DNA from: Polynucleobacter sp. MWH-Loch1C5
GTDB lineage: Bacteria > Pseudomonadota > Gammaproteobacteria > Burkholderiales > Burkholderiaceae
Reading direction: 5' to 3'
Assembly (NCBI RefSeq): GCF_018881775.1
Contig: NZ_JACVPR010000001.1
Coordinates: 1,164,318-1,196,317, forward strand
Length of the DNA stretch: 32,000 bases
A model generated the notes under the pieces. The model saw only the letters and a list, made by a program, of their open reading frames with translations. It ran no database searches and was not told the origin of the DNA. The position numbers were made by a program, and so were the translations under genes. Positions 6,710 through 24,739 of this stretch are shown here, piece after piece (the first letter of the stretch is position 1; each line of letters opens with the position of its first letter).

Positions 6710-7542
6710 TTTTTAGCAATCGGTCGAGTGGGTTCGCTGCACCACTCGCTCCAACTTCCCGCATAGAGTTTTGCAGAGTCAATGCCAGCAAGGGCCATGG
6801 CAAAAATATTATGACAAGCAGTCACGCCTGAACCGCACTGATGCACCAGTTCTAAGTCAGAGCTGAGTGCTTTAAATTCCTCTGCTAATACTTGGGGGTC
6901 TTTAAAGAGACCATGGCTATCTAAGTTATTTCTAAAAAAGCGATTCAGGGCACCTGGGATATGACCACCTACCGGATCTAGTGTTTCATTTTCACCCATG
7001 AAACGATCTGGCGCGCGTGCATCTAGGATCTGAAATTGTCGATCTTGAAGATTTGCAAGTACAGCGGCGCTATTGATGACGCCGTGAAACGGCTCTACGT
7101 CTAACTGCTCAGTTGTTGGATGATACTGGGTGCCACTGTCGGTGGGCAGGCCAGCCTTGAGCCAAGATTCAAAACCACCATTGAGAACTTGAACGCGCTG
7201 GATGCCTGAGGCTTTGAGCATCCACCACATTCTGCAAGCAAAGGCTCCGTACTGATGATCGTAGATGACGATGCTTTGCTGATGGGTAATGCCAAGACGA
7301 AGGCAAGTCTGATGCCATGATGAAAAATCGGGCAATGGATGGCGACCGTTATGACCATTTTTCGGGCCAGATAAATCACGATCTAGGTGAACATACGCTG
7401 CGCCAGGGATATGCCCCATTAGATAGGCATCATGACCACTCTCAGGTTTTGCTAAATCAAAGCGGCAGTCATAGATCAGGGGTGCCTGATGGTTTTGGAT
7501 TTGTGCCCATAATTCAGCAGCGTTAATCAGAGGTGAGTTCAT
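6706..7542 (-). CDS. sseA: 3-mercaptopyruvate/thiosulfate sulfurtransferase (tandem rhodanese)
   Basis: Two rhodanese domains and the active-site loop CGSGVTAC. ATG at 7542 (MNSPL...) is chosen because it overlaps the stop of the upstream Rieske gene (ATGA). The longer ORF-track start would overlap that gene by 37 bp. Confidence 0.85.
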   Translation of the reverse strand: MNSPLINAAELWAQIQNHQAPLIYDCRFDLAKPESGHDAYLMGHIPGAAYVHLDRDLSGPKNGHNGRHPLPDFSSWHQTCLRLGITHQQSIVIYDHQYGAFACRMWWMLKASGIQRVQVLNGGFESWLKAGLPTDSGTQYHPTTEQLDVEPFHGVINSAAVLANLQDRQFQILDARAPDRFMGENETLDPVGGHIPGALNRFFRNNLDSHGLFKDPQVLAEEFKALSSDLELVHQCGSGVTACHNIFAMALAGIDSAKLYAGSWSEWCSEPTRPIAKN

Positions 7543-9914: not shown

Positions 9915-11795
9915 ATGACGAACAAGTTGGATTCCATTCACAGTCCTGCCGATTTACGCAATTGCAGTAAAGCGGAGTTGGATGACTTAGCGATTGAGCT
10001 AAGACAATTTCTCTTAGATAGTGTTTCTAAGACTGGTGGACACTTGTCTTCTAATTTAGGCACCGTTGAGTTAACGATTGCTTTGCATTATGTTTTTGAG
10101 ACTCCTTACGATCGCTTAGTTTGGGATGTCGGCCACCAGAGTTACGCTCATAAGATTCTGACAGGTCGTAAAGATGCAATGTCTACTTTGCGTCAGTACG
10201 GTGGTATTTCAGGTTTCCCGCGCCGCTCTGAAAGTGAATACGATACCTTTGGCACAGCACACTCATCAACGAGTATTTCAGCTGCATTAGGCATGGCTTT
10301 GGGTGCCCGTGCTCAAGGTGAGAAGCGAGTTGCTGTGGCTGTCATCGGTGATGGTGCTATGAGTGCTGGTATGGCTTTTGAAGCGCTTAATAACGGTGGC
10401 ATCTATAAGGATTTGCCGCTAGTCGTGGTGTTAAATGATAACGATATGTCTATTTCACCTGCTGTGGGCGCGCTTAATCGTTACTTGGCACGTTTAATGA
10501 GCGGTCGTTTTTATGCAGCCACCAAAAAAGGTTTAGATAGTGTCTTATCAATGGCGCCACCATTACGTGAGTTTGCCAAACGTCTAGAAGAGCATGCCAA
10601 AGGCATGGTGGTGCCTGGCACTATTTTTGAGGAATTTGGCTTTAACTACATAGGCCCGATTGATGGACATGATCTCGATTCTTTGATCCCTACTTTGCAA
10701 AATGTCAGGCGTTTAGCTCTCGAGGGTGAAGGCCCACAGTTTTTGCATGTAGTGACTAAAAAAGGCCAAGGTTACAAATTAGCAGAAGCAGATCCGATTC
10801 TTTATCACGGCCCGGGTAAGTTTGATCCATCCCAAGGCATTAAGCCGAGCACGACAAGTAAAAAAACATTTACTCAAGTCTTTGGTGAATGGCTGTGCGA
10901 TATGGCGGCTGCGGATCCCAAATTGGTAGCTATCACCCCGGCTATGCGTGAAGGCTCTGGATTGGTTGAATTTGAAAGTCGTTTCCCACAACGTTATTTT
11001 GATGTGGGCATTGCTGAGCAGCACGCAGTTACTTTTTCCGGCGGTCTAGCTTGTGAAGGTTTAAAACCGGTAGTGGCGATTTATTCAACGTTTTTGCAGC
11101 GTGGCTATGATCAGTTGATTCATGACGTGGCTTTACAAGATTTGCCTGTGGTATTTGCATTAGATCGTGCAGGCTTAGTTGGTGCTGATGGTGCCACTCA
11201 TGCAGGCGCCTATGACATTCCATTCTTGCGTTGCGTACCTAATATGATTTTGATGGCCCCGGCTGATGAGGCAGAGTGCCGTGATCTTTTGACGACTGCT
11301 TATCGTCAAAATCATCCAAGTGCAGTGCGTTATCCGCGCGGTGCTGGTGTGGGTGCGGTAGTGAGTCAAGAATTAAAAGAGTTACCTTTAGGGCGTGGCG
11401 AAATCCGTCGTCAAGGTAAAAAAGTAGCGATTTTGGCTTTTGGAACATTGCTATACCCCGCCTTAGATGTGGCTGAGCGTATCGATGCCACTGTGGCCAA
11501 TATGCGTTTTATTAAGCCAATAGATGCCGATTTAGTTTGTTCTTTGGCTCGCACGCATGACTTGCTAGTGACCCTTGAAGAGGGTGCGATAGGCGGTGGT
11601 GCCGGCAGTGCATGCTTGGAAGTGTTAGCAGAGCAGGGTATTGAGGTGCCCTGTTTACAGCTCGGTTTACCCGATCGTTTTGTTGATCATGGTGATCATG
11701 CCCTACTCATGAAAGAATGTGGTCTGGATGTAGACGGCATTCAAAAAGCCATTCAGAAAAAACTGGATTTATCTCAAAAAAAGCGCGCAGCCTGA
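9915..11795 (+). CDS. dxs: 1-deoxy-D-xylulose-5-phosphate synthase
   Basis: 626-aa ORF with [13 protein letters not shown], the ThDP-binding motif [16 protein letters not shown] and a transketolase-like C-terminus. Confidence 0.95.
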
Positions 11796-11815
11796 TTTTG
11801 TCGGACAATAACGTT

Positions 11816-12637
11816 ATGAACGATATCAACACCGCATTTCTTAAAGGGCAGGCTATGCCCGATGTGCAGTCCAGCCACGATCACCGTAACATTCCTATTA
11901 ATCGGGTGGGTGTTCGTGGTGTGCGTCATCCGATCTTGATTCAGGTGGGTGATACGGCGCAGCACACGGTGGCGACATTCGATTTAGATGTGGCTTTACC
12001 TGCAGACAAAAAAGGCACCCACATGTCTCGTTTTGTGGCTCTTTTGCAAGAGCAGCATCAGGCCTTAGATGCGGCATCGATTCGTGAAATGGCCAGCAAA
12101 ATGCTGGATCTTTTGGATGCAACAGCAGGTCAGATTCAGTTCAAATACACCCAGTTCATCAATAAAACTGCACCTGTATCAGGTGTACAAAGTTTGTTGG
12201 ATTACGACGTCAGCTGGGATGTGCGTGCTGAAAAAATCAATGGTCAAGCGCAAACAACTCTCTACCTACAAGCGGTGGTTCCTGTCACGAGTTTGTGCCC
12301 ATGTTCTAAAGAAATCTCAGAGTATGGCGCTCACAATCAGCGTTCACATGTCACCATGAAGGTTGAGTTGGCTCAGGATGCTAAATTAGATTTAGAAGAG
12401 TTGGTCAAGATTGCTGAAAGCCAAGCCTCTTGTGAGTTATGGGGTCTTTTGAAGCGCCCCGATGAAAAGTACGTCACCGAGCGTGCGTATGACAACCCTA
12501 AGTTTGTAGAAGACTTAGTGCGTGATGTCGCCGGACAATTAAAGGCAGACAAGCGTATTCAGAGTTTTGTGGTTGAAGCTGAAAACTTTGAATCGATTCA
12601 CAATCATAGTGCTTACGCACTGATTTCATCTAACTGA
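11816..12637 (+). CDS. folE2: GTP cyclohydrolase I type 2 (FolE2/GCYH-IB)
   Basis: KGTHMSRF and [10 protein letters not shown] motifs. ATG at 11816 (MNDINTAF) lies just after the dxs stop. The ORF-track extension overlaps dxs. Confidence 0.85.
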
Positions 12638-13668
12638 TCTAGAGGCCAGCGCGGCCTCACATCAAAGCTGCGACTGCTTGTGGCCAAGCTAGGGTTTTGT
12701 GCCAAGCGCATGGCTCCTGCAAAGGCAATCATGGCGCCATTATCGGTGCACAAATGAAGGGGCGGGTAATGTACTTTTGCGCCAATTAATTCGCAAGCAT
12801 GATTGAGGTGTTCGCGTAATTGCACGTTAGCGCCAACACCGCCAGCGACGATTAAATGCTGTTGTTCATGAGTATTGAGTGCCGCAATACATTTTTCAGT
12901 AATGACTTCAGTGATCGCTGCCACGAATGAGGCGGCGATATCAGCTTTCGCAGATGGTTCTAAATTTTCTGTCCCGCCTAACTTTTTCACTTGTGTGAGG
13001 ACCGCAGTCTTTAAACCAGCAAATGAAAAATCTAAATCTTTTGAGTGCAGCATAGGTCGTGGGAAGTTAAAGCGCTCGCTCTGACCTGATTCTGCGAGAG
13101 CGGAGACTTGCGGTCCACCCGGATAGGGAAGACCTAATAACTTGGCTGTTTTGTCAAAGGCTTCGCCAGCCGCATCATCGAGTGTCTCGCCTAGGATGAT
13201 GTATTGCCCCAGACCTTTGACAAGCATCAGTTGTGTGTGCCCCCCTGACACTAAGAGAGCAATAAATGGAAATTCGAGAGGATTCTTCTGCCCTAGCAAA
13301 GGTGACAAAAGATGACCTTCAAGATGATGGATTCCTATGGTTGGAATACCGAGAGCCATTCCTAAAGCTTTCGCTACCGAGGTTCCGACGAGTAGCGCAC
13401 CTGCCAAGCCTGGCCCTTGGGTATAAGCGATCGCATCGATGCTATGAAGATCAGCCCCAGAATCTTTAACTACTTGATTAATAAGGGGAATAATCCTTTT
13501 GATATGATCGCGTGATGCTAATTCAGGGACTACGCCCCCGTAATTTTGGTGCATCGCGATTTGCGAATAAAGGGCTTGACCTTTGATTTCAAAGGAATTA
13601 TTTCCGCTAACCTCGACAATCGCTAGGCCGGTTTCATCACAAGAAGTTTCTATACCAAGAACTCGCAT
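12613..13668 (-). CDS. tsaD: tRNA N6-adenosine threonylcarbamoyltransferase
   Basis: 351-aa ORF with [21 protein letters not shown] metal site and GGVGAN. It is divergent from rpsU, as in E. coli. Confidence 0.95.
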
Positions 13669-13683
13669 AACAGTATTTTGCCG

Positions 13684-13692
13684 TGCTACAAT
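13684..13692 (+). promoter_or_regulatory. Candidate extended -10 promoter element (TGcTACAAT) for rpsU operon
   Basis: TG-n-TACAAT lies about 55 bp upstream of the rpsU ATG. No convincing -35 was found. Motif match only. Confidence 0.3.
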
Positions 13693-13745
13693 CTCGTTTT
13701 ACAGTTTTTTCTGACTAAATCAGAACATTTTTTAGAGTAAACAGC

Positions 13746-13958
13746 ATGACAACTATCCGCTTACGCGAAAACGAACCTTTTGAAGTGGCATTACGCCGTT
13801 TTAAGCGCGCTATTGAAAAGAATGGCCTCTTAACTGAACTCCGTGCTCGTGAGTTTTATGAAAAGCCAACTACAGAGCGCAAGCGCTTGAAGGCTGCTGC
13901 TGCGAAACGTCATTACAAGCGTATCCGCAGCCAGATGTTGCCTAAGAAAATGTACTAA
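13746..13958 (+). CDS. rpsU: 30S ribosomal protein S21
   Basis: 70-aa basic protein ([26 protein letters not shown]...[12 protein letters not shown]). Confidence 0.95.
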
Positions 13959-13996
13959 TTCTTTTCCGGGCAAGCATACTTGCCTTGGGATACGAT

Positions 13997-14031
13997 AAAC
14001 CCACTGCGGATATGCCCAGTGGGTTTTTTTA
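13997..14031 (+). terminator. Rho-independent terminator/attenuator after rpsU
   Basis: Stem AAACCCACTG / CAGTGGGTTT with a 10-nt loop, followed by a T run. It is positioned like the internal terminator of the rpsU-dnaG-rpoD operon. Confidence 0.6.
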
Positions 14032-14043
14032 TTTGGAGAAAAA

Positions 14044-14490
14044 ATGAGCCTGAAAGACAGCATTACAGAAGATATGAAATCCGCCATGCGTGCCAAAGAT
14101 ACGGAGCGTTTGGGGACCATTCGTTTATTACTGGCTGCGATGAAGCAAAAAGAAGTAGATGAGCGTATTGAGTTAGATGACGCTGCCGTGTTGGCCATCA
14201 TTGAAAAACTCATTAAGCAACGTAAAGACTCCATCAGTCAATTTCAAGCGGCCGGTCGTGATGATTTGGTTGCTAAAGAGCAAGCCGAATTAGTGGTTTT
14301 GCAAGCCTACATGCCAGCACAATTATCAGAAGAAGAAGTGCGTGCGGCAGTCTCCGCTGCGATTGCACAGGTGGGCGCCGTGGGTCCTCAGGATATGGGT
14401 AAGGTCATGGGTGTTGTAAAACCTCAATTGGCTGGCAAGGCCGATATGGGAATGGTTTCCGCAGCCGTGAAAGCCTTGCTCACCAAATAA
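14044..14490 (+). CDS. GatB/YqeY domain-containing protein
   Basis: 148-aa ORF (MSLKDSITEDMKSAMRAKD...QAAGRDDLVAKEQAE) located between rpsU and dnaG. Confidence 0.85.
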   Translation: MSLKDSITEDMKSAMRAKDTERLGTIRLLLAAMKQKEVDERIELDDAAVLAIIEKLIKQRKDSISQFQAAGRDDLVAKEQAELVVLQAYMPAQLSEEEVRAAVSAAIAQVGAVGPQDMGKVMGVVKPQLAGKADMGMVSAAVKALLTK

Positions 14491-16411: not shown

Positions 16412-18928
16412 ATGGCTGTTGCAAAATCAAAAAAAACGATCACCAAAGCAGTTTTGAAAAAGACTGCAGCTAAGCCAGCGGCTAAAAAGCCAGTGGCCAA
16501 GAAGTTAGCCAAACCTGCTGCTAAAAAGGCGGTTGTTAAAAAGCCAGTGGCTAAAAAAGCAGCAGCTAAGCCAGCGGCTAAAAAGCCGGTGGCCAAGAAG
16601 GTAGTCAAACCTGCTGCAAAGAAGCCGGTGGTTAAAAAGCCAGTGGCTAAAAAAGCAGCAGCTAAGCCAGCAGCTAAAAAGCCAGTGGCCAAGAAAGTGG
16701 CTAAACCTGTTGCTAAGAAGCCGGTGCCTAAGAAGGTGGCTAAACCAGTCAAGCCAGTAAAAGTAGAAAAAGGTCCAACGAAAGCTGAAATTAGAGCCGC
16801 AGAGCAAGCTAAGAAAAAAGAACTCCAAGCTCAGTTAAAGCTAGAAAAGCAATTACAAAAACAATTAGAAAAAGAACAAAAAAAGGCTGCGGCTGAAGCT
16901 GCTGCTGCATTAGCTGTTCCCAAAAAGCGTGGCCGCAAACCAAAAGTGGTTGAGCCAGGTGATCCAAATGTTGATCAACGTACAGACCGCCAAAAAGCAC
17001 GTGATCGTAAGGCTAAAGAAAAAGCCTTGCTACAAGAATTCAATGCCCAGAAACTAGGTAGTGAAGAACAGCAAGAGTTACGTCGTGCGCGTTTGAAGCA
17101 GTTGATCAAGATGGGTAAGTCTCGTGGTTATTTGACCCATGGCGAAATCAATGACGTGATGTCTGACGAGATCTCTGATGCAGATTCATTAGAGACTTTG
17201 ATTGGCTTGTTAAGCGATATTGGTATTACTGTTTATGAGCAAGCTCCTGATGCTGAGACTTTGCTGCTCAATGAAAATGCGCCATCAGCCACTACAGAAG
17301 AAGAAGCTGAAGAAGAGGCTGAGGCTGCTTTATCAACGGTCGATTCTGAGTTTGGTAGAACGACTGATCCAGTACGTATGTATATGCGTGAGATGGGTAC
17401 AGTTGATTTGTTGACGCGTGAAGGCGAGATTGTTATTGCCAAAAAGATCGAAGCTGGTCTTAAAGATATGGTGATGGCTTTGTCTGCATGCCCGGTCACC
17501 ATTGCAGAAATTTTAGATAACGCGCAAAAGATTAAAGATGCCACTATGGAAATCGACGAGTTCGTCGATGGTCTCGTGGACCCTAACGCTGAAGATATCC
17601 CTATGTCTGCTGCAGAAGAAGAGGAAGACCTCGATGATGCTGACGAAGATGAAGATGACATGGACGAAGAAGGCGGCGGCGGTGGTGCTAGTGCGGCCTC
17701 AGCTAAACAATTAGAGGAGTTGAAGCAACTTTCACTCGAAAAGTTTGATGTGATTCGCGCGCAATTTGAAAAAATGCGTCGTGCACATGAGCGTGAAGGA
17801 TATAACTCGCCCGCTTATAAGAAAGCGCAAGAAGTGATTCGTAATGAACTCATGGGTTTCAGATTTACAGCGAAATCTGTTGAGAAGTTGTGTGACACCA
17901 TGCGCAAGCAGGTCGATGAGGTATGGACTTTAGAGCGTAATTTGGTCGGTTTGCTGGCGAATAAGGTCGGTGTGCCTCGTAATGAAGTTCTAGCTGCATT
18001 GCCTAAACAGGCTTTGAATTTGAAGTGGACTGCTAACTTACTCAAGGAAGCCAAGCCTTATAGCGCCATTCTCGAGCGTAACGTACCAGCAATTCAAGAG
18101 ATTCAGCAAAAACTGATTGATATTCAGAGCGCAGTTGTGTTGCCGCTTGCAGAATTGAAAGAAGTCAATAAGCGCATGAACGAGGGTGAAAAGCGTGCTC
18201 GTGAAGCGAAGCGTGAAATGACTGTAGCTAACTTGCGTTTGGTTATTTCGATTGCGAAAAAATATACCAACCGCGGTTTACAGTTCTTGGATTTGATTCA
18301 AGAGGGCAATATTGGTTTGATGAAGGCGGTTGATAAGTTTGAATATCGTCGTGGTTATAAATTCTCTACCTATGCTACTTGGTGGATTCGTCAGGCGATC
18401 ACACGTTCTATTGCCGATCAGGCAAGAACCATCCGTATTCCAGTCCATATGATTGAGACGATCAATAAGATGAATCGTATTAGTCGTCAAATCTTGCAAG
18501 AGACCGGTATTGAGCCAGATGCTGCAACTTTAGCGCAGAAGATGGAAATTCCTGAAGACAAGATTCGTAAAATTATGAAGATTGCTAAGGAACCTATCTC
18601 TATGGAGACACCGATTGGTGATGATGAGGACTCGCATTTGGGTGACTTCATCGAAGATACCAACACCTTGGCTCCTGCAGAAGCAGCTTTACATGATTCG
18701 ATGCGTGATGTTGTCAAAGATATTTTGGACTCACTCACACCTCGTGAGGCTAAGGTTCTCAGAATGCGCTTTGGTATTGAGATGAGTACCGACCATACGC
18801 TGGAAGAGGTTGGTAAACAGTTTGATGTCACGCGTGAGCGTATTCGTCAGATTGAAGCCAAAGCTTTGCGCAAAATGCGTCATCCAAGCAGAAGCGACAA
18901 ACTCAAGAGCTTCTTAGAGGGAGATTAA
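16412..18928 (+). CDS. rpoD: RNA polymerase sigma-70 (housekeeping) with long Lys/Ala/Pro-rich N-terminal extension
   Basis: Region 1.1-like segment starts near residue 220 ([23 protein letters not shown]). Region 2 [12 protein letters not shown] and region 4.2 [30 protein letters not shown] are present. Residues 1-215 are extra and in the same ORF with no intervening stop. Confidence 0.95.
16466..16753 (+). repeat. Three tandem copies of a 96-bp coding repeat (32-aa [13 protein letters not shown]... unit)
   Basis: GCAGCTAAGCCAGC(G/A)GCTAAAAAGCC recurs at 16466, 16562 and 16658, an exact 96-bp period, inside the rpoD 5' region. Confidence 0.85.
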
Positions 18929-18935
18929 GCAATAA

Positions 18936-18977
18936 GGGCCCTTAGCTCAGTTGGTTAGAGCAGAGGACTCATAATCC
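18936..18977 (+). pseudogene. 5' half of split host tRNA (CAT anticodon, tRNA-Ile2/ileX-like)
   Basis: GGGCCCT-TA-GCTC-AGTTGGTTA-GAGC-A-GAGGA-CTCATAA-TCC gives the acceptor 5' strand, D arm, anticodon stem 5' strand and loop. The sequence then diverges into island DNA (ATTCACCCGG...). Confidence 0.85.
18968..18977 (+). repeat. attL core (CTCATAATCC)
   Basis: Identical 10-mer at 24695-24704. It corresponds to the anticodon loop plus 3 nt of the split tRNA. Confidence 0.75.
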
Positions 18978-19139
18978 ATTCACCCGGATTGTCCAAAGCT
19001 CTAAAATCCAGTAAAATAAAGGCTTACAGCGTTTTTTTACAAATAAAATCTGCTTACACACCACTTACACACTTTTTCAGCTTTTTAGGGGTGGTTTTGT
19101 GGAGGTTAGCAGCAGTAGTGAAATGAAGGGGGTGTGGCG

Positions 19140-19307
19140 ATGTATAAGGCGCAATACAAAGCGAACAACGCATATGAGAGTTGGACGAACATCGGCACAT
19201 ACAGCAGTGAGAGTGAAGCGATGAATGTGGCGATGAAGAAAAAGAACAGCGGCGCACTGATGGTGAGAGTAATCGATAGAAACGGCAGCGTGGTGTATTC
19301 AGGTTAA
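19140..19307 (+). CDS. 55-aa hypothetical protein (MYKAQYKANNAYESWTNIGTYSSESEAMNVAMKKKNSGALMVRVIDRNGSVVYSG)
   Basis: Read by hand; below the ORF-track size cutoff. ATG is preceded by AAGGGGG 8 nt upstream. It has the island-type T-poor codon usage and ends 9 nt before the element tRNA. Confidence 0.45.
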   Translation: MYKAQYKANNAYESWTNIGTYSSESEAMNVAMKKKNSGALMVRVIDRNGSVVYSG

Positions 19308-19316
19308 AACACAAAA

Positions 19317-19391
19317 GGGCCTATAGCTTAATGGTAAAGCAGGCGACTCATAATCGCTTGAGTGCTGGTTCGATTCCAGCTGGGCCCACCA
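19317..19391 (+). tRNA. Element-encoded complete tRNA with CAT anticodon (Ile2/k2C-type candidate; elongator Met not excluded)
   Basis: 75 nt: GGGCCTA-TA-GCTT-AATGGTA-AAGC-A-GGCGA-CTCATAA-TCGCT-TGAGT-GCTGG-TTCGATT-CCAGC-TGGGCCC-A-CCA. All four stems pair, with one G-T in the acceptor. C4-G69 and C5-G68 are present. No C1-A72 initiator feature. Confidence 0.85.
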
Positions 19392-19400
19392 AATACATAC

Positions 19401-19430
19401 AGAGCTGCTACCGATAGCAGCTCTTTTTTT
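19401..19430 (+). terminator. Rho-independent terminator after element tRNA
   Basis: Perfect 10-bp stem AGAGCTGCTA / TAGCAGCTCT, loop CCGA, followed by a T run. Confidence 0.75.
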
Positions 19431-19481
19431 GTCTGCGGTGTTTTGATTGTCCAAACTATTTAATGACACTACAGTAGCGAT

Positions 19482-20843
19482 ATGCCAGAGCAAAAAGAAA
19501 CGACACACACACTGATTGAGCGTTCGCTGATCGTGTATCGGCGTGAGCGCAGCAGCATATGGCAGTGTCGATACAAGGTTGATGGCGTATGGCAACGAGC
19601 ATCGACAAAAGAGAGCGACTTAAAAAAAGCCAAAGCACGGGCAAACGAACTGTTGATGGAAGCAGTAATACGCAAACGCTCAAATCTGCCTGTTATTACA
19701 CGCAAGTTTAGAGATGTGGCACGGCTGGCAGTGGAGCGGTTAGAGCACGAGATTGCGATCGGCAAAGGCAAGCGCAGCTACACAGACTACATACGGGTGA
19801 TTAACGATTATCTAATCCCGATATTAGGCAGAAAAGCGATAACAAGCATCGACTACCAAGCATTAGACGAACTGAACGAAAAACGCACAGCGATGATGGA
19901 AAAAGTGCCGACACAAAGCACGATGCTGACGCACAACGCAGCACTGAATCGTGTGTTTGACGAAGCGGTAATACGGGGATTTTTAACAGAAGCGAATAAG
20001 CCAAAGTTAGAAGCGACAGGCAAAAAGAGTGAGCGCAGAGCAGCGTTTGATATAAATGAGCTGCGGGCACTGCTGGCTAACTTTGATGGGTGGATTGAAG
20101 CGGCACGCACAGCGCAGAGCAAAGAGATGCGAACATTACTGCGTGATTATGTGGATGTGCTGATTGACACTGGCGCACGACCAGGCGACGAACTGTTGAA
20201 CTTACAGTGGCGACAGATCAAGTTTGCGATGAAACCGATACTGACGCACACAGGTGTGATTGATAACACAGACGATCAGCACGAAGAAATAACGCTTCCA
20301 AACCTAAATCGCAGCGTAGAGCTGGTCGTCAGCGGCAAAACAGGCACACGCACGATCGTGGCGATGAATAGGACGGTTAAAGCATTAGAGCGCATCGCAC
20401 TGCGCAACTACGACATTGATGACAGCATTGTCGATCCATTTAAGCAGCTAACAGTGCCGACAAACAAAGACTATGTGTTTAGGACACTAGATAAGCAGCC
20501 GCCGACAAGCTGGCAAAAGATGTTTGAGAGCTACTTAAAGGAACACAACTTACTGATTGACCCGATTACTGGCAACAAGCGTGTGTTTTACAGCCTGCGA
20601 CACACATATGCGACATTAGCACTGACAAACGACAAAGTGCCAATACACACGCTGGCAAAGCAGATGGGCACAAGTGTGCTGATGATCGAAAAGCATTACA
20701 GTCATCTTAAAGTCGTCCAAGCGATTGACCAGCTGCGTGGCGAAGAGACACGCAAACTCATTGATGCGGGTGGCGTGGTCGATGAGACTTACACAAGTCA
20801 GCGCAAGCTAAAGAAACAAGCAGCGCAGAAAAAGAAGGCATAG
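19482..20843 (+). CDS. int: Tyrosine-type site-specific integrase
   Basis: 453-aa ORF with catalytic-domain motifs DTGARPGDELLNLQW (Arg I), SLRHTYATLAL (His-x-x-Arg) and IEKHYSHL (Tyr). A long N-terminal arm/core-binding region is present. It lies next to attL. Confidence 0.9.
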   Translation: MPEQKETTHTLIERSLIVYRRERSSIWQCRYKVDGVWQRASTKESDLKKAKARANELLMEAVIRKRSNLPVITRKFRDVARLAVERLEHEIAIGKGKRSYTDYIRVINDYLIPILGRKAITSIDYQALDELNEKRTAMMEKVPTQSTMLTHNAALNRVFDEAVIRGFLTEANKPKLEATGKKSERRAAFDINELRALLANFDGWIEAARTAQSKEMRTLLRDYVDVLIDTGARPGDELLNLQWRQIKFAMKPILTHTGVIDNTDDQHEEITLPNLNRSVELVVSGKTGTRTIVAMNRTVKALERIALRNYDIDDSIVDPFKQLTVPTNKDYVFRTLDKQPPTSWQKMFESYLKEHNLLIDPITGNKRVFYSLRHTYATLALTNDKVPIHTLAKQMGTSVLMIEKHYSHLKVVQAIDQLRGEETRKLIDAGGVVDETYTSQRKLKKQAAQKKKA

Positions 20844-20858
20844 TATTCTTACTATGCC
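20837..20858 (+). terminator. Hairpin overlapping integrase stop codon (possible terminator, no T run)
   Basis: GGCATAGTA-TTCT-TACTATGCC forms a perfect 9-bp stem. No downstream U tract, so its function is uncertain. Confidence 0.3.
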
Positions 20859-20960
20859 TGTCATCTGTGTCAGCGTCGATTATTTTTACGCATCTCAAAC
20901 CGCTTAAATATTGCTCTTTAGCGTCGTTTGACTGGATTTATGGTGAGCACGGCTGTTGTT

Positions 20961-21131
20961 TTATTGCGTGGCAAGCTGGGCTAACTGCTGCTGTGTTTTG
21001 CGAAGCTTTAAGGTAAGCGCAGCACGACGGGCAGATTTAGCAGCAGCTTTGGCAGCACTCTGTTGCGCTTTGACACGCTGTGTGTCGGCGTTTAAGTTTG
21101 CTGTTGGACTGACGACTTCTGCGATACGCAC
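20961..21131 (-). CDS. 56-aa Lys/Ala/Gln-rich hypothetical protein
   Basis: GTG start at 21131 is preceded by a perfect AAGGAG 7 nt upstream and lies 28 bp after the stop of the 146-aa gene. The ORF-track ATG at 21218 would overlap that gene. Confidence 0.45.
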   Translation of the reverse strand: MRIAEVVSPTANLNADTQRVKAQQSAAKAAAKSARRAALTLKLRKTQQQLAQLATQ

Positions 21132-21159
21132 TGCGCTTCTCCTTAATGTGTAGCAGTAT

Positions 21160-21600
21160 TTAATCGTTGGCAAAACCTTTGCGCAGCGCAATGCTGGCCG
21201 CTTCGATCTGTGCGTCAAGTTCGCCGTTGCTGATAGCGGACTTAATCAGTTCAAGCGTAGGCACGATATCTTTGCTGTTTGCGATCTCTACTGCCGTTTT
21301 GCCTTTAGCTAACTCAAGTGTTCGTGCGCCGTATTTGATATGGACGCAGAGTTTGCCGTTGTCCGCTACAAAAGTCCAAGCCTTAACAGTTTTGGCAACT
21401 TCGGCTGTTTTACGCAAACCAGTGTCAGCGTCTGTGTAGCTGCGCAGGCGTGTAGCGGTATAGGCAGTGCCGTTTTGCTGTGCTGTGGCTAATGCGATTT
21501 GCTCATCTACTCTGCGCAGCAGTTTATGGCGACGGGCAAGCACAGGGCTGATGTGAGAGGGCTTTTTGGCTGTGGTTAGTTTTAGCTGTGAAAGTGTCAT
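21160..21600 (-). CDS. 146-aa conserved-looking hypothetical protein
   Basis: ATG at 21600 (MTLSQLKL...) follows AAAAGGAG. The sequence is non-repetitive and globular-looking (…RLRSYTDADTGLRKTAEVAKTVKAWTF…LELAKGKTAVEI…GELDAQIEAAS). I recall similar proteins in genomic islands (possibly a DUF family) but cannot verify this. Confidence 0.7.
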   Translation of the reverse strand: MTLSQLKLTTAKKPSHISPVLARRHKLLRRVDEQIALATAQQNGTAYTATRLRSYTDADTGLRKTAEVAKTVKAWTFVADNGKLCVHIKYGARTLELAKGKTAVEIANSKDIVPTLELIKSAISNGELDAQIEAASIALRKGFAND

Positions 21601-21753
21601 TTTTGCTCCTTTTTTGCGATGTGAAAAAAGCACTACGCACAGCACGATATGACCTGAAACGCAGGCTGGACAAGAGTTTTGAGGGCAAAAAGACGGGTTT
21701 GAGCAGAGATGGGAAAAATATTTTGGTTTTCCTGTTCAAACATAAATAACTGT

Positions 21754-22317
21754 ATGAAAGCCATACATACAGCACAGCACAAAGCAGCTTATATCGCAGC
21801 GCAGCACGACTACCTACAGCGTGTAGCGCAGCACTGCGACTACGCCATCACGCTACAGACCAGCTTACGCACAGCAGGCATTAAGGCACGCACGATGGAG
21901 GGCAGGCTATACAAGGCACAGGGCAGCTTACGGCAGCTGCGCAACAAGCTTAACAGGCTACTGACAGGCAACGGCTATAAGCGCAACAACAGGTATTTGC
22001 CAGTGTTTGTGGCTGCGATAGAGGGCACGACAAACGACTACGACTTAAACAGGACGCTACACATACACATAGCATTAGGCAACACAGGGCATACGGCAAC
22101 AGAAGAAACACGCAGGCTATTAGAAGACGGCATTAGGCAGATATGGGCAGCGACAGATGTAGGCACAGCAGATGTAAAGGTGGATAGGCTGACAAAAGGC
22201 ACAGAGAACAGGTGGATGGGCTACATAGGCAAAGAGGCACACACGGGCAGCACAGGCAACACAGGCGTTATTGACTACAGCAACACGCAAATCCCAGCAC
22301 ATTTACTACAAGACTGA
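21754..22317 (+). CDS. Putative HUH-superfamily rolling-circle replication initiator/nickase (inovirus Gp2 / YagK-YfjJ-like)
   Basis: Ordered motifs are AITLQT (motif I-like), TLHIHIALG (His-hydrophobic-His) and MGYIGKE (YxxK). The start is ambiguous between ATG 21754 and ATG 21709. Assignment rests on motifs only. Confidence 0.55.
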   Translation: MKAIHTAQHKAAYIAAQHDYLQRVAQHCDYAITLQTSLRTAGIKARTMEGRLYKAQGSLRQLRNKLNRLLTGNGYKRNNRYLPVFVAAIEGTTNDYDLNRTLHIHIALGNTGHTATEETRRLLEDGIRQIWAATDVGTADVKVDRLTKGTENRWMGYIGKEAHTGSTGNTGVIDYSNTQIPAHLLQD

Positions 22318-22412
22318 CTACAAGCAAAGACAGGCAGGCAACAACATAGGCAAGCGTGTGATTTGACGCAGCGTTAATCGCACGACATTTACAGTTTGAT
22401 AAGAGCGATGCT

Positions 22413-22510
22413 GACACTGGCGACAGTGTTAGTTGGATATGCTTTGTCTAAACATTGTCAAACACTGAACAACACACTCAAACACAATAAGACAACACTG
22501 GAACACTGAC
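22413..22510 (+). promoter_or_regulatory. Hairpin plus 10-bp-phased AACA repeats (candidate Rep-binding iterons/origin)
   Basis: Inverted repeat GACACTG-GCGA-CAGTGTT at 22413-22430. AACA then begins at 22451, 22461, 22471 and 22481, with AACACTG at 22461, 22494 and 22502. It lies about 100 bp downstream of the Rep-like gene. Confidence 0.35.
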
Positions 22511-23047
22511 ACACAGCACAGATACACAATGAACGAACAGTGAATGACAACGGCGACGCAGTGAAACAAAGACACAGCACAGATAGAGATACAGAGGAAT
22601 ACGAAGCAGCAACAAGCAGCACTGTGGTCAAAAATCAGCACATTGATGAAAAATGGGCTATTGCTGAAAAACGCAGCACGGATTTTTAGGGCTACAGCTG
22701 AAAACTGGGTAAGTAGCACACGCAGAGCAACGCACACAGCGCATAGCAAGCACTCAAAACGCTTCTATGCGCTGTTTTTACGCTTTTCGAATAGCAATAC
22801 AGCAGCGCAGTGCTACAAACAGCGTGTAGGGCGTTTTACAGCATCTGTGCTTGTGGCTTTTTGACTACGGATACACGCAGAGCAGCGGTAAATATGTATG
22901 AACAGGAAATACGCAAAAACTGTTCAAACCGTGTAAGCCGTTGATTTTTGGAAGGTCTTTGCGAATCAAAAAGAGGTAGGAAAAACTTTGAAAAGAAAAC
23001 AAACTGTGTGTAGCAATAAATGTTCAAAACCGAAGGAGAGCTACACA

Positions 23048-23614
23048 ATGGCACAAGCAGCAACATTAGACGCACAGCAGCTACAGCGGGTATTAGACTG
23101 CCTGAAAACACGCAGGCACTACAGGCGCAACAGGACGATGATTTTGCTGACGCATTGGTCGATGTTGCGTGTAGGGGAAGTAGCAGCACTGCGCTACTGT
23201 GATGTGTTAGACAGCGATGGGCAGATATTAAGTGAGACCGTGCTGGCAGCAGAGCAGACAAAGGGCGATCGGAGCAGGCGTATTTGGTTTAATGAGCGTA
23301 TGCGGTCAGAGTTGGCAGCGTATGTGGCAGCACACAAGCCCAAATACAAGACACAGAGGCTCTTTTACACGCAGCGCAGTGAAGGCTTTACGGCAAATAC
23401 GCTGACACACATTATCAACGGCATCTACAGCCAAGCGGGCATCGCAAACGCATCATCACACTCTGGCAGGCGCAGTGGGCTGACTACACTGGCAGATAAG
23501 GGTGTGAGTGTGCGGGTGCTGATGGCGTTAGCAGGACACAGTCAAATCGCTACTACACAGCGATACATTGATCTGCGTCCCAGCGTCGTTAGGGCTGCGG
23601 TGGAGTTGGTTTAG
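23048..23614 (+). CDS. Small tyrosine recombinase (catalytic domain only, 188 aa)
   Basis: ATG is preceded by GAAGGAG. Catalytic residues are present: LRVGEV (Arg), TKGDRSR (Lys hairpin), HSGRRS (His-x-x-Arg), GHSQIATTQRYI (His, Tyr). There is no N-terminal DNA-binding domain. Confidence 0.85.
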   Translation: MAQAATLDAQQLQRVLDCLKTRRHYRRNRTMILLTHWSMLRVGEVAALRYCDVLDSDGQILSETVLAAEQTKGDRSRRIWFNERMRSELAAYVAAHKPKYKTQRLFYTQRSEGFTANTLTHIINGIYSQAGIANASSHSGRRSGLTTLADKGVSVRVLMALAGHSQIATTQRYIDLRPSVVRAAVELV

Positions 23615-24468
23615 GAAAGCTTCGAAATAACTATTTCTTCACCACGACAGGTAAATCGTGTAAGAGCATTTTTGTGGGAATGTGAAATCCAACCTCTCGA
23701 AGCAAAATAGATAAGAGCGGCGTGCGCATCAATGCTTACAAAGGCGTCATCATCTGAAATATGTTCATACTTCTCCCACAAACTAAAATCTGGCTCGAGC
23801 TTCAAATATTCGAGTGGCAACGGACTATTTGAAATGTAGAGTTTGACTTCACGAAGCAGTCGAGATGGTATTGAGCAAAGCATACGAAAAATAAGATTAT
23901 TACGGACTGGAATCAAGAACTTCCCTATTTTTTCTGAAACGTTAAGTTCCGAGTAGGGTCTTTGTTCGAGCTTCTTTACGGTCCAAGGGCGACAGTTCCA
24001 GGCTGGACTTAAAACAGCGATTCCATTTGGCTTCAGTATTCTTTCGATCTCTTTAAAAGCTTTTTCAACTTCTGGAATATGCTCTAAAGCGGCAAAGGAA
24101 AAAATAAAATCTACAGATGACGGCGCAAGCGGCAAGGCTCGCGCATCCCCTTCAAAAATATTCAAGTCACTTCCATAAAGTTCTTTTGCCAACGCTACAG
24201 CAGTATTGGAATATTCAAACCCTTTCCAGTTTTTATGGCTGGTATTCAAGTGCCCAAGACCGCAACCGATCTCGATTACCACGGCGTCATCAGTTATCTG
24301 GTGCTGCTTTAAATATTTTTTTACGACTTCCAGCTGTGCGTTGGGCCTTTCTGACGTTTTTTTCTGGTTGTCAAAAGAGCCGTAGTTATGTCCGTCGGCC
24401 TTATACACATCAGAATAAAGTTGCTTTGTGTCAAGTTTTTGACCTTCGCTTAGATTTGTTTGAACCAT
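23611..24468 (-). CDS. Class I SAM-dependent methyltransferase, substrate unknown
   Basis: 285-aa ORF with motif I VIEIGCGLG, then FEGDARALPL, DFIFSFAALEHI and LKPNGIAVL. It also has a ~110-aa C-terminal region of unknown function. Composition is AT-rich and host-like, unlike the rest of the element. Confidence 0.85.
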   Translation of the reverse strand: MVQTNLSEGQKLDTKQLYSDVYKADGHNYGSFDNQKKTSERPNAQLEVVKKYLKQHQITDDAVVIEIGCGLGHLNTSHKNWKGFEYSNTAVALAKELYGSDLNIFEGDARALPLAPSSVDFIFSFAALEHIPEVEKAFKEIERILKPNGIAVLSPAWNCRPWTVKKLEQRPYSELNVSEKIGKFLIPVRNNLIFRMLCSIPSRLLREVKLYISNSPLPLEYLKLEPDFSLWEKYEHISDDDAFVSIDAHAALIYFASRGWISHSHKNALTRFTCRGEEIVISKLS

Positions 24469-24694
24469 TGTCGTTACCGTTGTGTCTATAAGTTATAGTT
24501 AGTTTAACAGCGCACAGCAGAGCAGCATAGAGTTTTGGCTGTGCGCAGAGCATTACTTAAGTGATACATTGCGGTTGCGCTGTGTCTTTCATTGTGTAGC
24601 AGCATAGTGCGCATTTGCTTACACACTTTGCTACACACCAAAAATAATCACGCTATTAGCCGCATAAATGCTGGATTTATTTTGAGTGTCTTTT

Positions 24695-24704
24695 CTCATA
24701 ATCC
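24695..24704 (+). repeat. attR core (CTCATAATCC)
   Basis: Direct repeat of 18968-18977. Confidence 0.75.
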
Positions 24705-24739
24705 TTTGGTCCGCGGTTCAAGTCCGCGAGGGCCCACCA
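24695..24739 (+). pseudogene. 3' half of split host tRNA (CAT anticodon)
   Basis: CTCATAA-TCCTT-TGGTC-CGCGG-TTCAAGT-CCGCG-AGGGCCC-A-CCA. The acceptor 3' strand pairs 7/7 with 18936-18942. Confidence 0.85.

Follow-up and report, generated by a model that had tools for sequence, protein, structure and literature searches.

Does a mobile element that carries its own transfer RNA (tRNA) gene for isoleucine use the codon ATA heavily because of that tRNA? The question is raised by a small integrative element of Polynucleobacter sp. MWH-Loch1C5, which lies in the 32,000-nucleotide (nt) stretch of contig NZ_JACVPR010000001.1 analyzed here and called the window. An earlier note, made from the sequence alone, had described the genes between positions 18978 and 23614 as poor in T on the coding strand and rich in the codons ATA (Ile) and AGG (Arg), and had linked this codon demand to the tRNA-Ile2 gene that the element brings with it. 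We judge a different answer fairly probable: the excess of ATA and AGG would be a by-product of a two-layer 'stealth' composition at the nucleotide level, and the tRNA would have a separate explanation, as the replacement of a host gene. The mobile element occupies positions 18978–24704 and has the 10-bp direct repeat CTCATAATCC on either side (18968–18977 and 24695–24704). It reaches beyond position 23614, where the earlier note had let the T-poor stretch end, and takes in a methyltransferase gene (23611–24468) that is not T-poor (T at third codon positions, T3, 0.34). For comparison, 20 related loci were retrieved (L001 to L020 below), among them members of a sister clade, clade B, with about 66% protein identity.

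Base and codon composition of the element genes

We compared the element genes with the host genes around them, using as reference the 26 kb of flanks with 21 flanking open reading frames (ORFs) and 7,426 codons, which stand in for the host genome average. The fraction of T on the sense strand is 0.14–0.20 in six element genes and 0.19–0.34 in the 21 host ORFs, and T3 is 0.10–0.26 against 0.26–0.41 (Mann–Whitney p = 7e-6 for each comparison). Codons of the form NNT amount to 17% in the element and 36% in the host. These counts bear out the description of the element genes as T-poor on the coding strand, and the minus-strand operon at 20961–21600 is likewise T-poor on the minus strand (T 0.18–0.19). 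When the element genes are pooled, ATA accounts for 17 of 64 Ile codons (27%), compared with 28 of 423 (7%) in the host (odds ratio 5.1, p = 9e-6), and AGG for 17 of 90 Arg codons (19%), compared with 9 of 352 (3%; odds ratio 8.9, p = 3e-7). The full codon count, which the earlier note had set as the test of its claim, thus places both codons significantly above the host flanks, and the low use of ATA and the T-richer third positions that it had described for the flanking host genes are found as well.

The single genes differ in how far they contribute. The gene of the Rep-like protein is the most extreme, with T3 0.10 and 1.8 TC or CC dinucleotides (YC, where Y is a pyrimidine) per 100 nt. 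From its conserved start at 21754, 6 of 12 Ile codons are ATA (8 of 14 when the ORF is read from 21709) and 8 of 15 Arg codons are AGG, in agreement with the hand count of 6 in 12 and roughly half. The integrase is ATA-rich, as had also been stated (10 of 31 Ile codons), with T3 0.16 and 3.8 YC per 100 nt. The AGG enrichment, in turn, holds for the pooled genes but comes only from the genes of the Rep-like protein and the small recombinase (7 of 21 Arg codons in the latter), with 2 of 38 in the integrase and 0 of 9 in the DUF6641 gene. The strongest T depletion is found outside the genes, in the untranslated sequence at 22318–22735, where the interval 22450–22749 reaches A 0.43 and T 0.13; thus, the bias is not a codon phenomenon. 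Within the genes, the ATA share of 27% is lower than the share of about 0.48 for A that the third-position bias of the element predicts in a tally of A-, C- and T-ending codons from four-codon boxes.

Avoidance of tetranucleotide palindromes

Over the whole element, AATT, CATG, GTAC and TGCA do not occur at all, and there is one copy each of CCGG, CGCG and CTAG and two of ACGT; per 5 kb, the flanks hold about 9–31 copies of each purged palindrome. The zone of avoidance is the sequence between the att cores (18978–24694). In 3,279 coding nt, nine tetranucleotides together are observed twice, compared with 89 expected from shuffles that preserve both protein and codon usage (minimum 67 in 1,000 shuffles). 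When the 136 tetranucleotide classes are ranked, the eight most depleted in the element are all palindromes, and no class in the host flanks has a ratio below 0.3. Codon context shows the purge too: NNA codons make up 28% of all codons, yet not one of the 22 ATT codons comes directly after one. It extends to the methyltransferase gene, from which AATT, CATG, GTAC and TGCA are missing although its T and YC contents are host-like. We considered T3 avoidance as a means of palindrome avoidance and rejected it. Genes recoded with host codon usage would hold 102 of the nine tetranucleotides, and the element codon usage lowers this expectation only to 89; therefore, palindrome avoidance and T3 avoidance are separate layers.

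The same purge is present in L001–L014 and L016, whose hosts have a flanking-ORF GC content of 39–64%, and whatever the host, the signature starts and stops abruptly at the edges of the element. The earlier note had taken the DNA to be foreign, and the coincidence of the signature with an att-bounded mobile element, together with sharp composition blocks of about 5 kb in the related loci, agrees with this. The avoided sets are clade-specific: clade B lacks GATC and TCGA, and ACGT is abundant in it. Such clade-specific sets are consistent with the enzymes of different host ranges, without proving it. We infer that the purge reflects selection by Type II restriction, a reading that we hold to be probable. 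As a side observation, ACGT is strongly over-represented in clade B (for example, 41 copies in the 5.9 kb of L008 7005–12901, compared with about 4 per 5 kb in the flanks), and ACWGT occurs twice in clade B (L008 and others) against 52 times in clade A. A protective role of the methyltransferase on the sites that are not avoided (AGCT, GCGC and TTAA) was also considered and found no support; the protein matches class I S-adenosylmethionine (SAM) methyltransferases of the small-molecule type, and no (D/N/S)PP(Y/F) motif was seen by eye.

Depletion of YC dinucleotides on the sense strand

On the sense strand of the element, T and, to a greater degree, TC and CC dinucleotides are depleted 2–6-fold, and this depletion includes codon junctions and the 420-nt untranslated spacer. 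The dinucleotide odds ratios are 0.33 for CC, 0.54 for TC and 1.38 for TT. The plus-sense transcription units contain 1.4–4.3 YC per 100 nt, compared with 6.7–13 in host genes, and the spacer at 22318–22735 contains 1.4. The longest (YC)N9–13 chain is 2–3 in element units and 3–8 in host genes.

The choice of codons follows the dinucleotide. Codons ending in C are preferred when the second base is a purine (GGC 76%, AAC 81%, CAC 71%) and shunned when it is a pyrimidine (CTC 3%, ACC 5%, TCC 2%, TTC 0 of 16). Phe is accordingly written as TTT in all 16 uses, the opposite of simple T avoidance. The third-position ratio C/(C+T) is 0.6–0.85 after a purine and 0.33–0.48 after a pyrimidine (0.00–0.23 in clade B). 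At the junctions between codons, Y|C is observed 34 times compared with 75 expected in protein- and codon-usage-preserving shuffles, and 11 times compared with 59 in L008 under the same type of shuffle. The deficit is therefore present in all three codon phases, at junctions and outside ORFs. In clade B it is stronger and tracks the sense strand in the minus-strand gene too, with NYC codons replaced by NYT. YC avoidance on the sense strand is a signature common to both main clades, and pronounced T avoidance belongs mostly to the clade of the window.

The direction of recent change was read from terminal branches of the family, on which YC is gained 27 times and lost 10 times, and T is gained 110 times and lost 62 times. 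C>T changes per site are not more frequent at YC (3 of 43) than at C after a purine (RC; 55 of 410). Since terminal branches gain YC and T, and C>T is not raised at YC, these counts argue for selection over mutation as the origin of the depletion.

The element tRNA and the attachment site

The 10-bp core corresponds to the anticodon loop of a host tRNA(CAT). The 5′ part of this tRNA-Ile2 gene lies at 18936–18977 on the plus strand and ends in the attL core, and the attR core is followed by the 3′ part (24695–24739, plus strand). The rejoined halves form a canonical 77-nt tRNA(CAT) that folds as a tRNA, and its best full-length matches in E. coli carry the PGAP annotation 'tRNA-Ile'; ARAGORN finds no tRNA at the attL or attR junction. 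The element-borne tRNA(CAT), also of the Ile2 type, lies at 19317–19391 on the plus strand (ARAGORN; Rfam tRNA, 73.5 bits), is followed by an intrinsic terminator (19401–19424), and is 84% identical over its full length to an E. coli PGAP 'tRNA-Ile'. The earlier note was thus right to assign one type to the tRNA of the element and the host gene that is interrupted. Halves of the host tRNA(CAT) also flank the element in L002, L003 and L008. The tRNA copies of the family show compensatory changes in their stems (alignment A4) and are therefore functional genes.

Carriage of the tRNA follows the integrase. The tRNA is found only together with the 453-residue integrase type, and complete flanks show the insertion in a split tRNA-Ile2. 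Members with a different integrase carry no tRNA; for example, tRNA-less L011 has the 3′ end of the GMP synthase gene guaA as its insertion site and is bounded by a 17-bp repeat (7280–7296 and 13576–13592). It is the same core element with the integrase module swapped and another target. Within the family, codon enrichment is not associated with tRNA carriage: ATA makes up 41% of Ile codons in tRNA-less members (L007, L010, L011 and L012) and 36% in tRNA-bearing ones (p = 0.18), and in clade B, ATC falls to 4–7 codons per element and ATA rises to about 40%. Because one host tRNA-Ile2 gene is broken and one is brought, no gene copy is added. The link of the tRNA to integrase type and site, together with ATA usage that is independent of it, points to a replacement for the broken gene. 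In this picture, the integrase is predicted to target the anticodon loop of tRNA-Ile2 at the 10-bp core, the gene is not rebuilt, and the element tRNA would stand in for the host gene, as in tRNA-dependent integration.

Some further features of the site were noted. All element tRNAs (window 19317–19391 and L001–L009; alignment A4) differ from CTCATAATCC in the last 1–2 bases (…ATAATCG or …ATAATTC), and owing to this mismatch to the att core, the element tRNA gene may be safe from its own integrase. In L003, another integrase gene (12938–14107; 34% identity) directly follows attR. A tandem array is suggested for L001, whose left flank (1–142) is similar to the right end of a second element that has diverged. 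The tRNA-Ile2 site is apparently a hotspot for insertion.

Proposed explanation and alternatives

We propose that the codon usage is shaped by constraints on DNA and on RNA. At the DNA level, over the whole element and on both strands, the nearly full purge of 4-bp palindromes would be the classical mark that selection against Type II restriction sites leaves in a small element able to enter many hosts. In small plasmids with a broad host range, composition is tuned to avoid restriction–modification targets (PMC10359461); such avoidance is known from phages as well (PMC6286503) and is strongest in plasmids of this kind. At the transcript level, the depletion of T and even more of YC on the sense strand of the core genes and the untranslated spacer would result from selection for transcripts without a ligand for the termination factor Rho, and such Rho-blind transcripts could be expressed in any host. 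Through its primary binding site, Rho reads spaced 5′-YC dimers on RNA that is not translated, and it reads regions with C>G (PMC6144790); it silences horizontally acquired DNA (PMC12360218), whose RNA is foreign and poorly translated. Both spaced YC chains and 5′-YC dimers are depleted in the element, as a Rho-evading transcript would require. Under these rules, ATT would be penalized as a T-ending codon that forms AATT after an A-ending one, and ATC would be penalized for the TC that it contains; ATA would be favored as the one codon for Ile that is compatible with both rules. Among the codons for Arg, the CGN type would create Y|C junctions and seed ACGT, CGCG and CCGG, and AGR codons would be favored because they make neither such junctions nor avoided sites. 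Finally, an integrase that breaks tRNA-Ile2 at the 10-bp core would oblige the element to bring a working copy. The sense-strand layer may reflect selection on the transcript, most plausibly evasion of Rho. The wider reading, in which YC and U depletion acts as passive anti-termination, hides even the 420-nt untranslated stretch from Rho, allows expression in any host whatever its codon adaptation and, with the palindrome purge and the own tRNA, makes a host-independent 'stealth' element, is offered tentatively, and we would sooner doubt it than rely on it.

Several points weigh against the Rho step. The DUF6641 operon on the minus strand is hardly depleted in YC in the clade of the window (7.8 per 100 nt), whereas the depletion in clade B is strong, and the methyltransferase cargo gene has none. 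The C content of the element is not reduced (0.22–0.23). The share of 78-nt windows with C>G is 0.24–0.39 on element sense strands and is not lower than the host sense mean of 0.34; the C>G 'bubble' criterion for Rho sites thus does not separate element from host sense strands. The Rho step itself is what we infer from the pattern. As for the other parts of the explanation, the gains and losses counted on terminal branches could also stem from amelioration towards the composition of the host, and the 21 flanking ORFs are the whole reference for host codons.

Other origins of the pattern have to be weighed against the proposed two layers. Co-adaptation of codons and tRNA, in which the genes became ATA-rich because of tRNA-Ile2 or the tRNA is carried to serve ATA-rich genes, draws on the 4-fold enrichment of ATA over host genes, on the Ile2 type of the element tRNA, and on the ratio from four-codon-box counts by which the avoidance of ATA, relative to third-position bias, is about 2-fold weaker in element genes than in host genes. 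We nevertheless find it quite unlikely, since the tRNA-less relatives are equally ATA-rich, the tRNA moves with the module of integrase and att site, and the breakage of the host gene leaves no gene copy added; the bias also reaches codon junctions and untranslated sequence. The link drawn in the earlier note between codon demand and tRNA supply is not supported by these observations, and AGG has no part in a tRNA match, because it must be read by tRNA-Arg(CCU), a tRNA that the element lacks. A donor signature, that is, the usage of an original host that is not yet ameliorated, would fit an element whose GC content (43–55%) and bias differ from those of every host found, and the gains of T and YC on terminal branches are what amelioration predicts. 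However, the composition is kept across clades that are about 66% identical in protein and in hosts of 39–64% GC, always with sharp edges. The eight lowest tetranucleotide classes are all palindromes, which indicates site-specific selection rather than a genome style, and the two clades avoid different palindromes, so this origin appears very unlikely.

Mutation rather than selection could leave a strand-specific mark if an APOBEC-like enzyme or a toxin deaminase attacked cytosines in TC and CC where the non-template strand is exposed, or if single strands were damaged during a rolling-circle phase driven by the HUH-like protein. TC and CC are indeed the classical deaminase contexts, NYC codons have become NYT in clade B, the TT odds ratio is 1.38, and the element encodes a candidate HUH nuclease. 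Against this, T is depleted overall and not enriched, and the terminal branches speak against an APOBEC-like origin, which we rejected: there is no excess of C>T at YC, and YC is gained faster than it is lost. A rolling-circle skew was rejected as well, because the bias in clade B changes strand with the orientation of the gene, and one replicative strand could not produce this. We regard strand-specific mutation as unlikely. Lastly, the T and YC depletion could be merely a by-product of palindrome avoidance, with strand asymmetry making palindromes rare, and the loss of YC does remove GATC, TCGA, CCGG and GGCC, exactly the extra sites missing in YC-poor clade B. However, palindromes are strand-symmetric and cannot favor one strand, the element codon usage hardly cuts their expected number, CATG, TGCA, GTAC and AATT contain no YC, and the methyltransferase gene is purged of palindromes yet poor in neither YC nor T. 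This last alternative is highly improbable.

Gene content and the Rep-like protein

The left part of the element begins with a small conserved ORF of 57 residues (19134–19307, plus strand; T 0.17), which has 55 residues in relatives and keeps 87–95% identity in L001–L004, L006, L018 and L019. It is followed by the element tRNA and by the tyrosine integrase of 453 residues (19482–20843, plus strand; PHROG 1 integrase, E = 2e-33). The minus-strand operon (20961–21600) encodes a DUF6641 protein of 146 residues (21160–21600; Pfam DUF6641, E = 8e-14) and, as its partner, a 56-residue ORF (20961–21131). The Rep-like gene lies on the plus strand at 21754–22317 and encodes 187 residues from the conserved Met, in an ORF that opens at 21709. 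Downstream of it is the untranslated, indel-rich spacer of about 420 nt (22318–22735, plus strand), in which no Rfam family and no conserved reading frame was found. A hairpin followed by a T-run (22736–22775, plus strand; −22.4 kcal/mol, z = −4.3) is the probable intrinsic terminator of the Rep-like transcript. The next region (22850–23047, plus strand) resembles a promoter or operator, with conserved blocks in the family alignment, and lies upstream of the small tyrosine recombinase of 188 residues (23048–23614, plus strand; ORF opening at 22988; PF00589, E = 2.5e-24). The small recombinase has 53–96% identity in all loci that reach across the gene, and L015 has no match.

The inverted repeat TGAACAGGAAA of the promoter-like region is also found upstream of the Rep-like gene (21728–21744). 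A 17-nt inverted repeat, TTTCCTGTTCAAACATA / TATGTATGAACAGGAAA, was observed at 21728–21744 and 22893–22909, upstream of the Rep-like and small recombinase genes; it is kept in relatives and is probably an operator common to both genes.

The methyltransferase gene (minus strand) encodes a cargo protein that belongs, according to its PF08241 and NCBIfam matches, to the class I SAM methyltransferases of the small-molecule type; it also receives the sole PADLOC assignment on the element, to mad2 (E = 1.3e-13). No virion genes were found among the element proteins in Pfam and PHROG searches. Long antisense ORFs (86–141 residues) are present on the minus strand at 19299–20122 and 22429–23261. They are spurious: all stop codons contain A, and the antisense strand of T-poor genes is A-poor, so such ORFs are a trap for gene callers. 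Outside the element, the host RpoD (838 residues; window 16412–18928) has an N-terminal extension of about 120 residues made of tandem repeats of the AAKKPVAKK type, and the host of L002 has a 936-residue RpoD beside the same tRNA site.

Homologues of the Rep-like protein form 86 clusters, most of them on contigs of 5–7 kb. Its motifs are an invariant T.H.H..GN and a conserved W..Y..KE; in 59 sequences, His103 and His105 are invariant, and Tyr157 and Lys160 are conserved in at least 90%. In the AlphaFold2 model (mean confidence score, pLDDT, 89), the H-x-H motif lies on a β-strand and Y-x-x-K near the C-terminus, as in the HUH Rep proteins and the TnpA transposases of the IS200/IS605 family. 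The top Foldseek matches are the nuclease domain of minute virus of mice (MVM) NS1, ISHp608 TnpA, adeno-associated virus (AAV) Rep and RepB, that is, HUH nucleases, although these matches are weak (E at least 5e-3, structural similarity score TM at most 0.41). Unlike the known HUH proteins, the Rep-like protein has no match among Pfam, NCBIfam or PDB sequence profiles. On the basis of the conserved motifs and the weak structural neighbors, it is possibly an HUH-type replication protein. A scan of IMG/VR with the profile of the Rep-like protein gave no relatives.

The element family in Burkholderiales

The retrieved loci share a core of DUF6641, Rep-like protein, spacer and small recombinase, followed by methyltransferase-type cargo where examined. 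The elements are integrative and about 5–6 kb in size. According to the record titles, the hosts are Polynucleobacter, Limnohabitans, Hydrogenophaga, metagenome-assembled genomes (MAGs) of Burkholderiaceae or Burkholderiales, Chromobacterium, Macromonas and a 'Halomonas' MAG, with flanking-ORF GC contents of 39–70%. A methyltransferase gene occupies the same place, 3′ of the recombinase on the minus strand, in the window (23611–24468), L001 (4834–5511), L003 (11844–12524) and L011 (11809–12819). These methyltransferases come from different families (Methyltransf_11 and Methyltransf_24/TylF), and the position looks like a cargo slot. Their composition was observed to be host-like, and the palindromes are nonetheless purged in most copies.

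On three metagenome contigs, the right end, core and left end are joined as the predicted attP (L018 849–886, L019 274–311 and L020 1778–1815). The junction in L018 has the small recombinase and cargo to one side and the 57-residue ORF, tRNA and integrase to the other. The joined ends point to circular or tandem forms of the element that also exist in nature. When the DNA of the whole element was compared with PLSDB plasmids and INPHARED phages, only the tRNA matched. In L002, an insertion of the IS21 type, with an IstB-like ATPase and a transposase, was observed between the Rep-like and recombinase genes (11249–13921), and the Rep-like gene of this locus is truncated.

Comparison with known systems

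Each layer of the element resembles something known, namely restriction-site avoidance, tRNA-dependent integration and a possible HUH-type replication protein. As in the restriction-site avoidance of phages (PMC6286503) and plasmids (PMC10359461), palindromes are under-represented beyond what composition and codon usage explain, the effect is stronger in the small mobile element than in host DNA, and it varies between lineages. However, the degree differs, since 7–9 of the sixteen possible 4-bp palindromes are all but missing over 5.7 kb here, and the carrier is an integrative element rather than a plasmid or phage. This is an unusually clean natural case, a near-total purge of tetranucleotide palindromes in a tiny integrative element whose hosts span 39–70% GC.

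The tRNA can be compared with two models. In the codon-compensation model for phage tRNAs (PMC10264068), as in the element, the cognate codon of the carried tRNA is seldom used by the host and often by the carrier; unlike in that model, the codon enrichment here is independent of tRNA carriage, and the tRNA would replace a disrupted host gene. An apparent match between codons and tRNA can thus be a coincidence of unrelated constraints, here stealth at the sequence level and repair of the insertion site. The closer parallel is tRNA-dependent lysogeny, described in actinobacteriophages (mycobacteriophages) by Guerrero-Bustamante and Hatfull 2024 (PMC10865867). Both systems have a tyrosine integrase with attB inside a tRNA gene, a common core of only about 10 bp that does not rebuild the tRNA, and an element tRNA that shares its isotype with the broken host tRNA. 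They differ in that the present target is tRNA-Ile2(CAT) of Betaproteobacteria and in that the carrier is a 5.7-kb element with no virion genes and no IMG/VR relatives, not a phage. The logic of 'tRNA-dependent' integration would thereby extend to Proteobacteria and to a non-phage element.

Foreign operons are known to escape Rho by lambda N/Q antitermination, by RfaH/ops and by Psu of phage P4. For the element, the proposed outcome does not differ: foreign RNA that is poorly translated would be transcribed to its full length despite Rho; however, the known escapes use dedicated proteins or RNA sites, whereas passive removal of the 5′-YC ligands is proposed here. Literature searches gave no precedent for a sense-strand YC deficit or for passive YC removal. 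If the proposal is true, YC avoidance in the transcript would be a defense against Rho silencing of foreign genes and could be useful in designing synthetic constructs for broad expression. In summary, what sets the element apart from the known systems is how far the tetranucleotide purge goes, the sense-strand YC deficit with which it is combined, and what appears to be tRNA-dependent integration on a 5.7-kb non-phage element of Betaproteobacteria.

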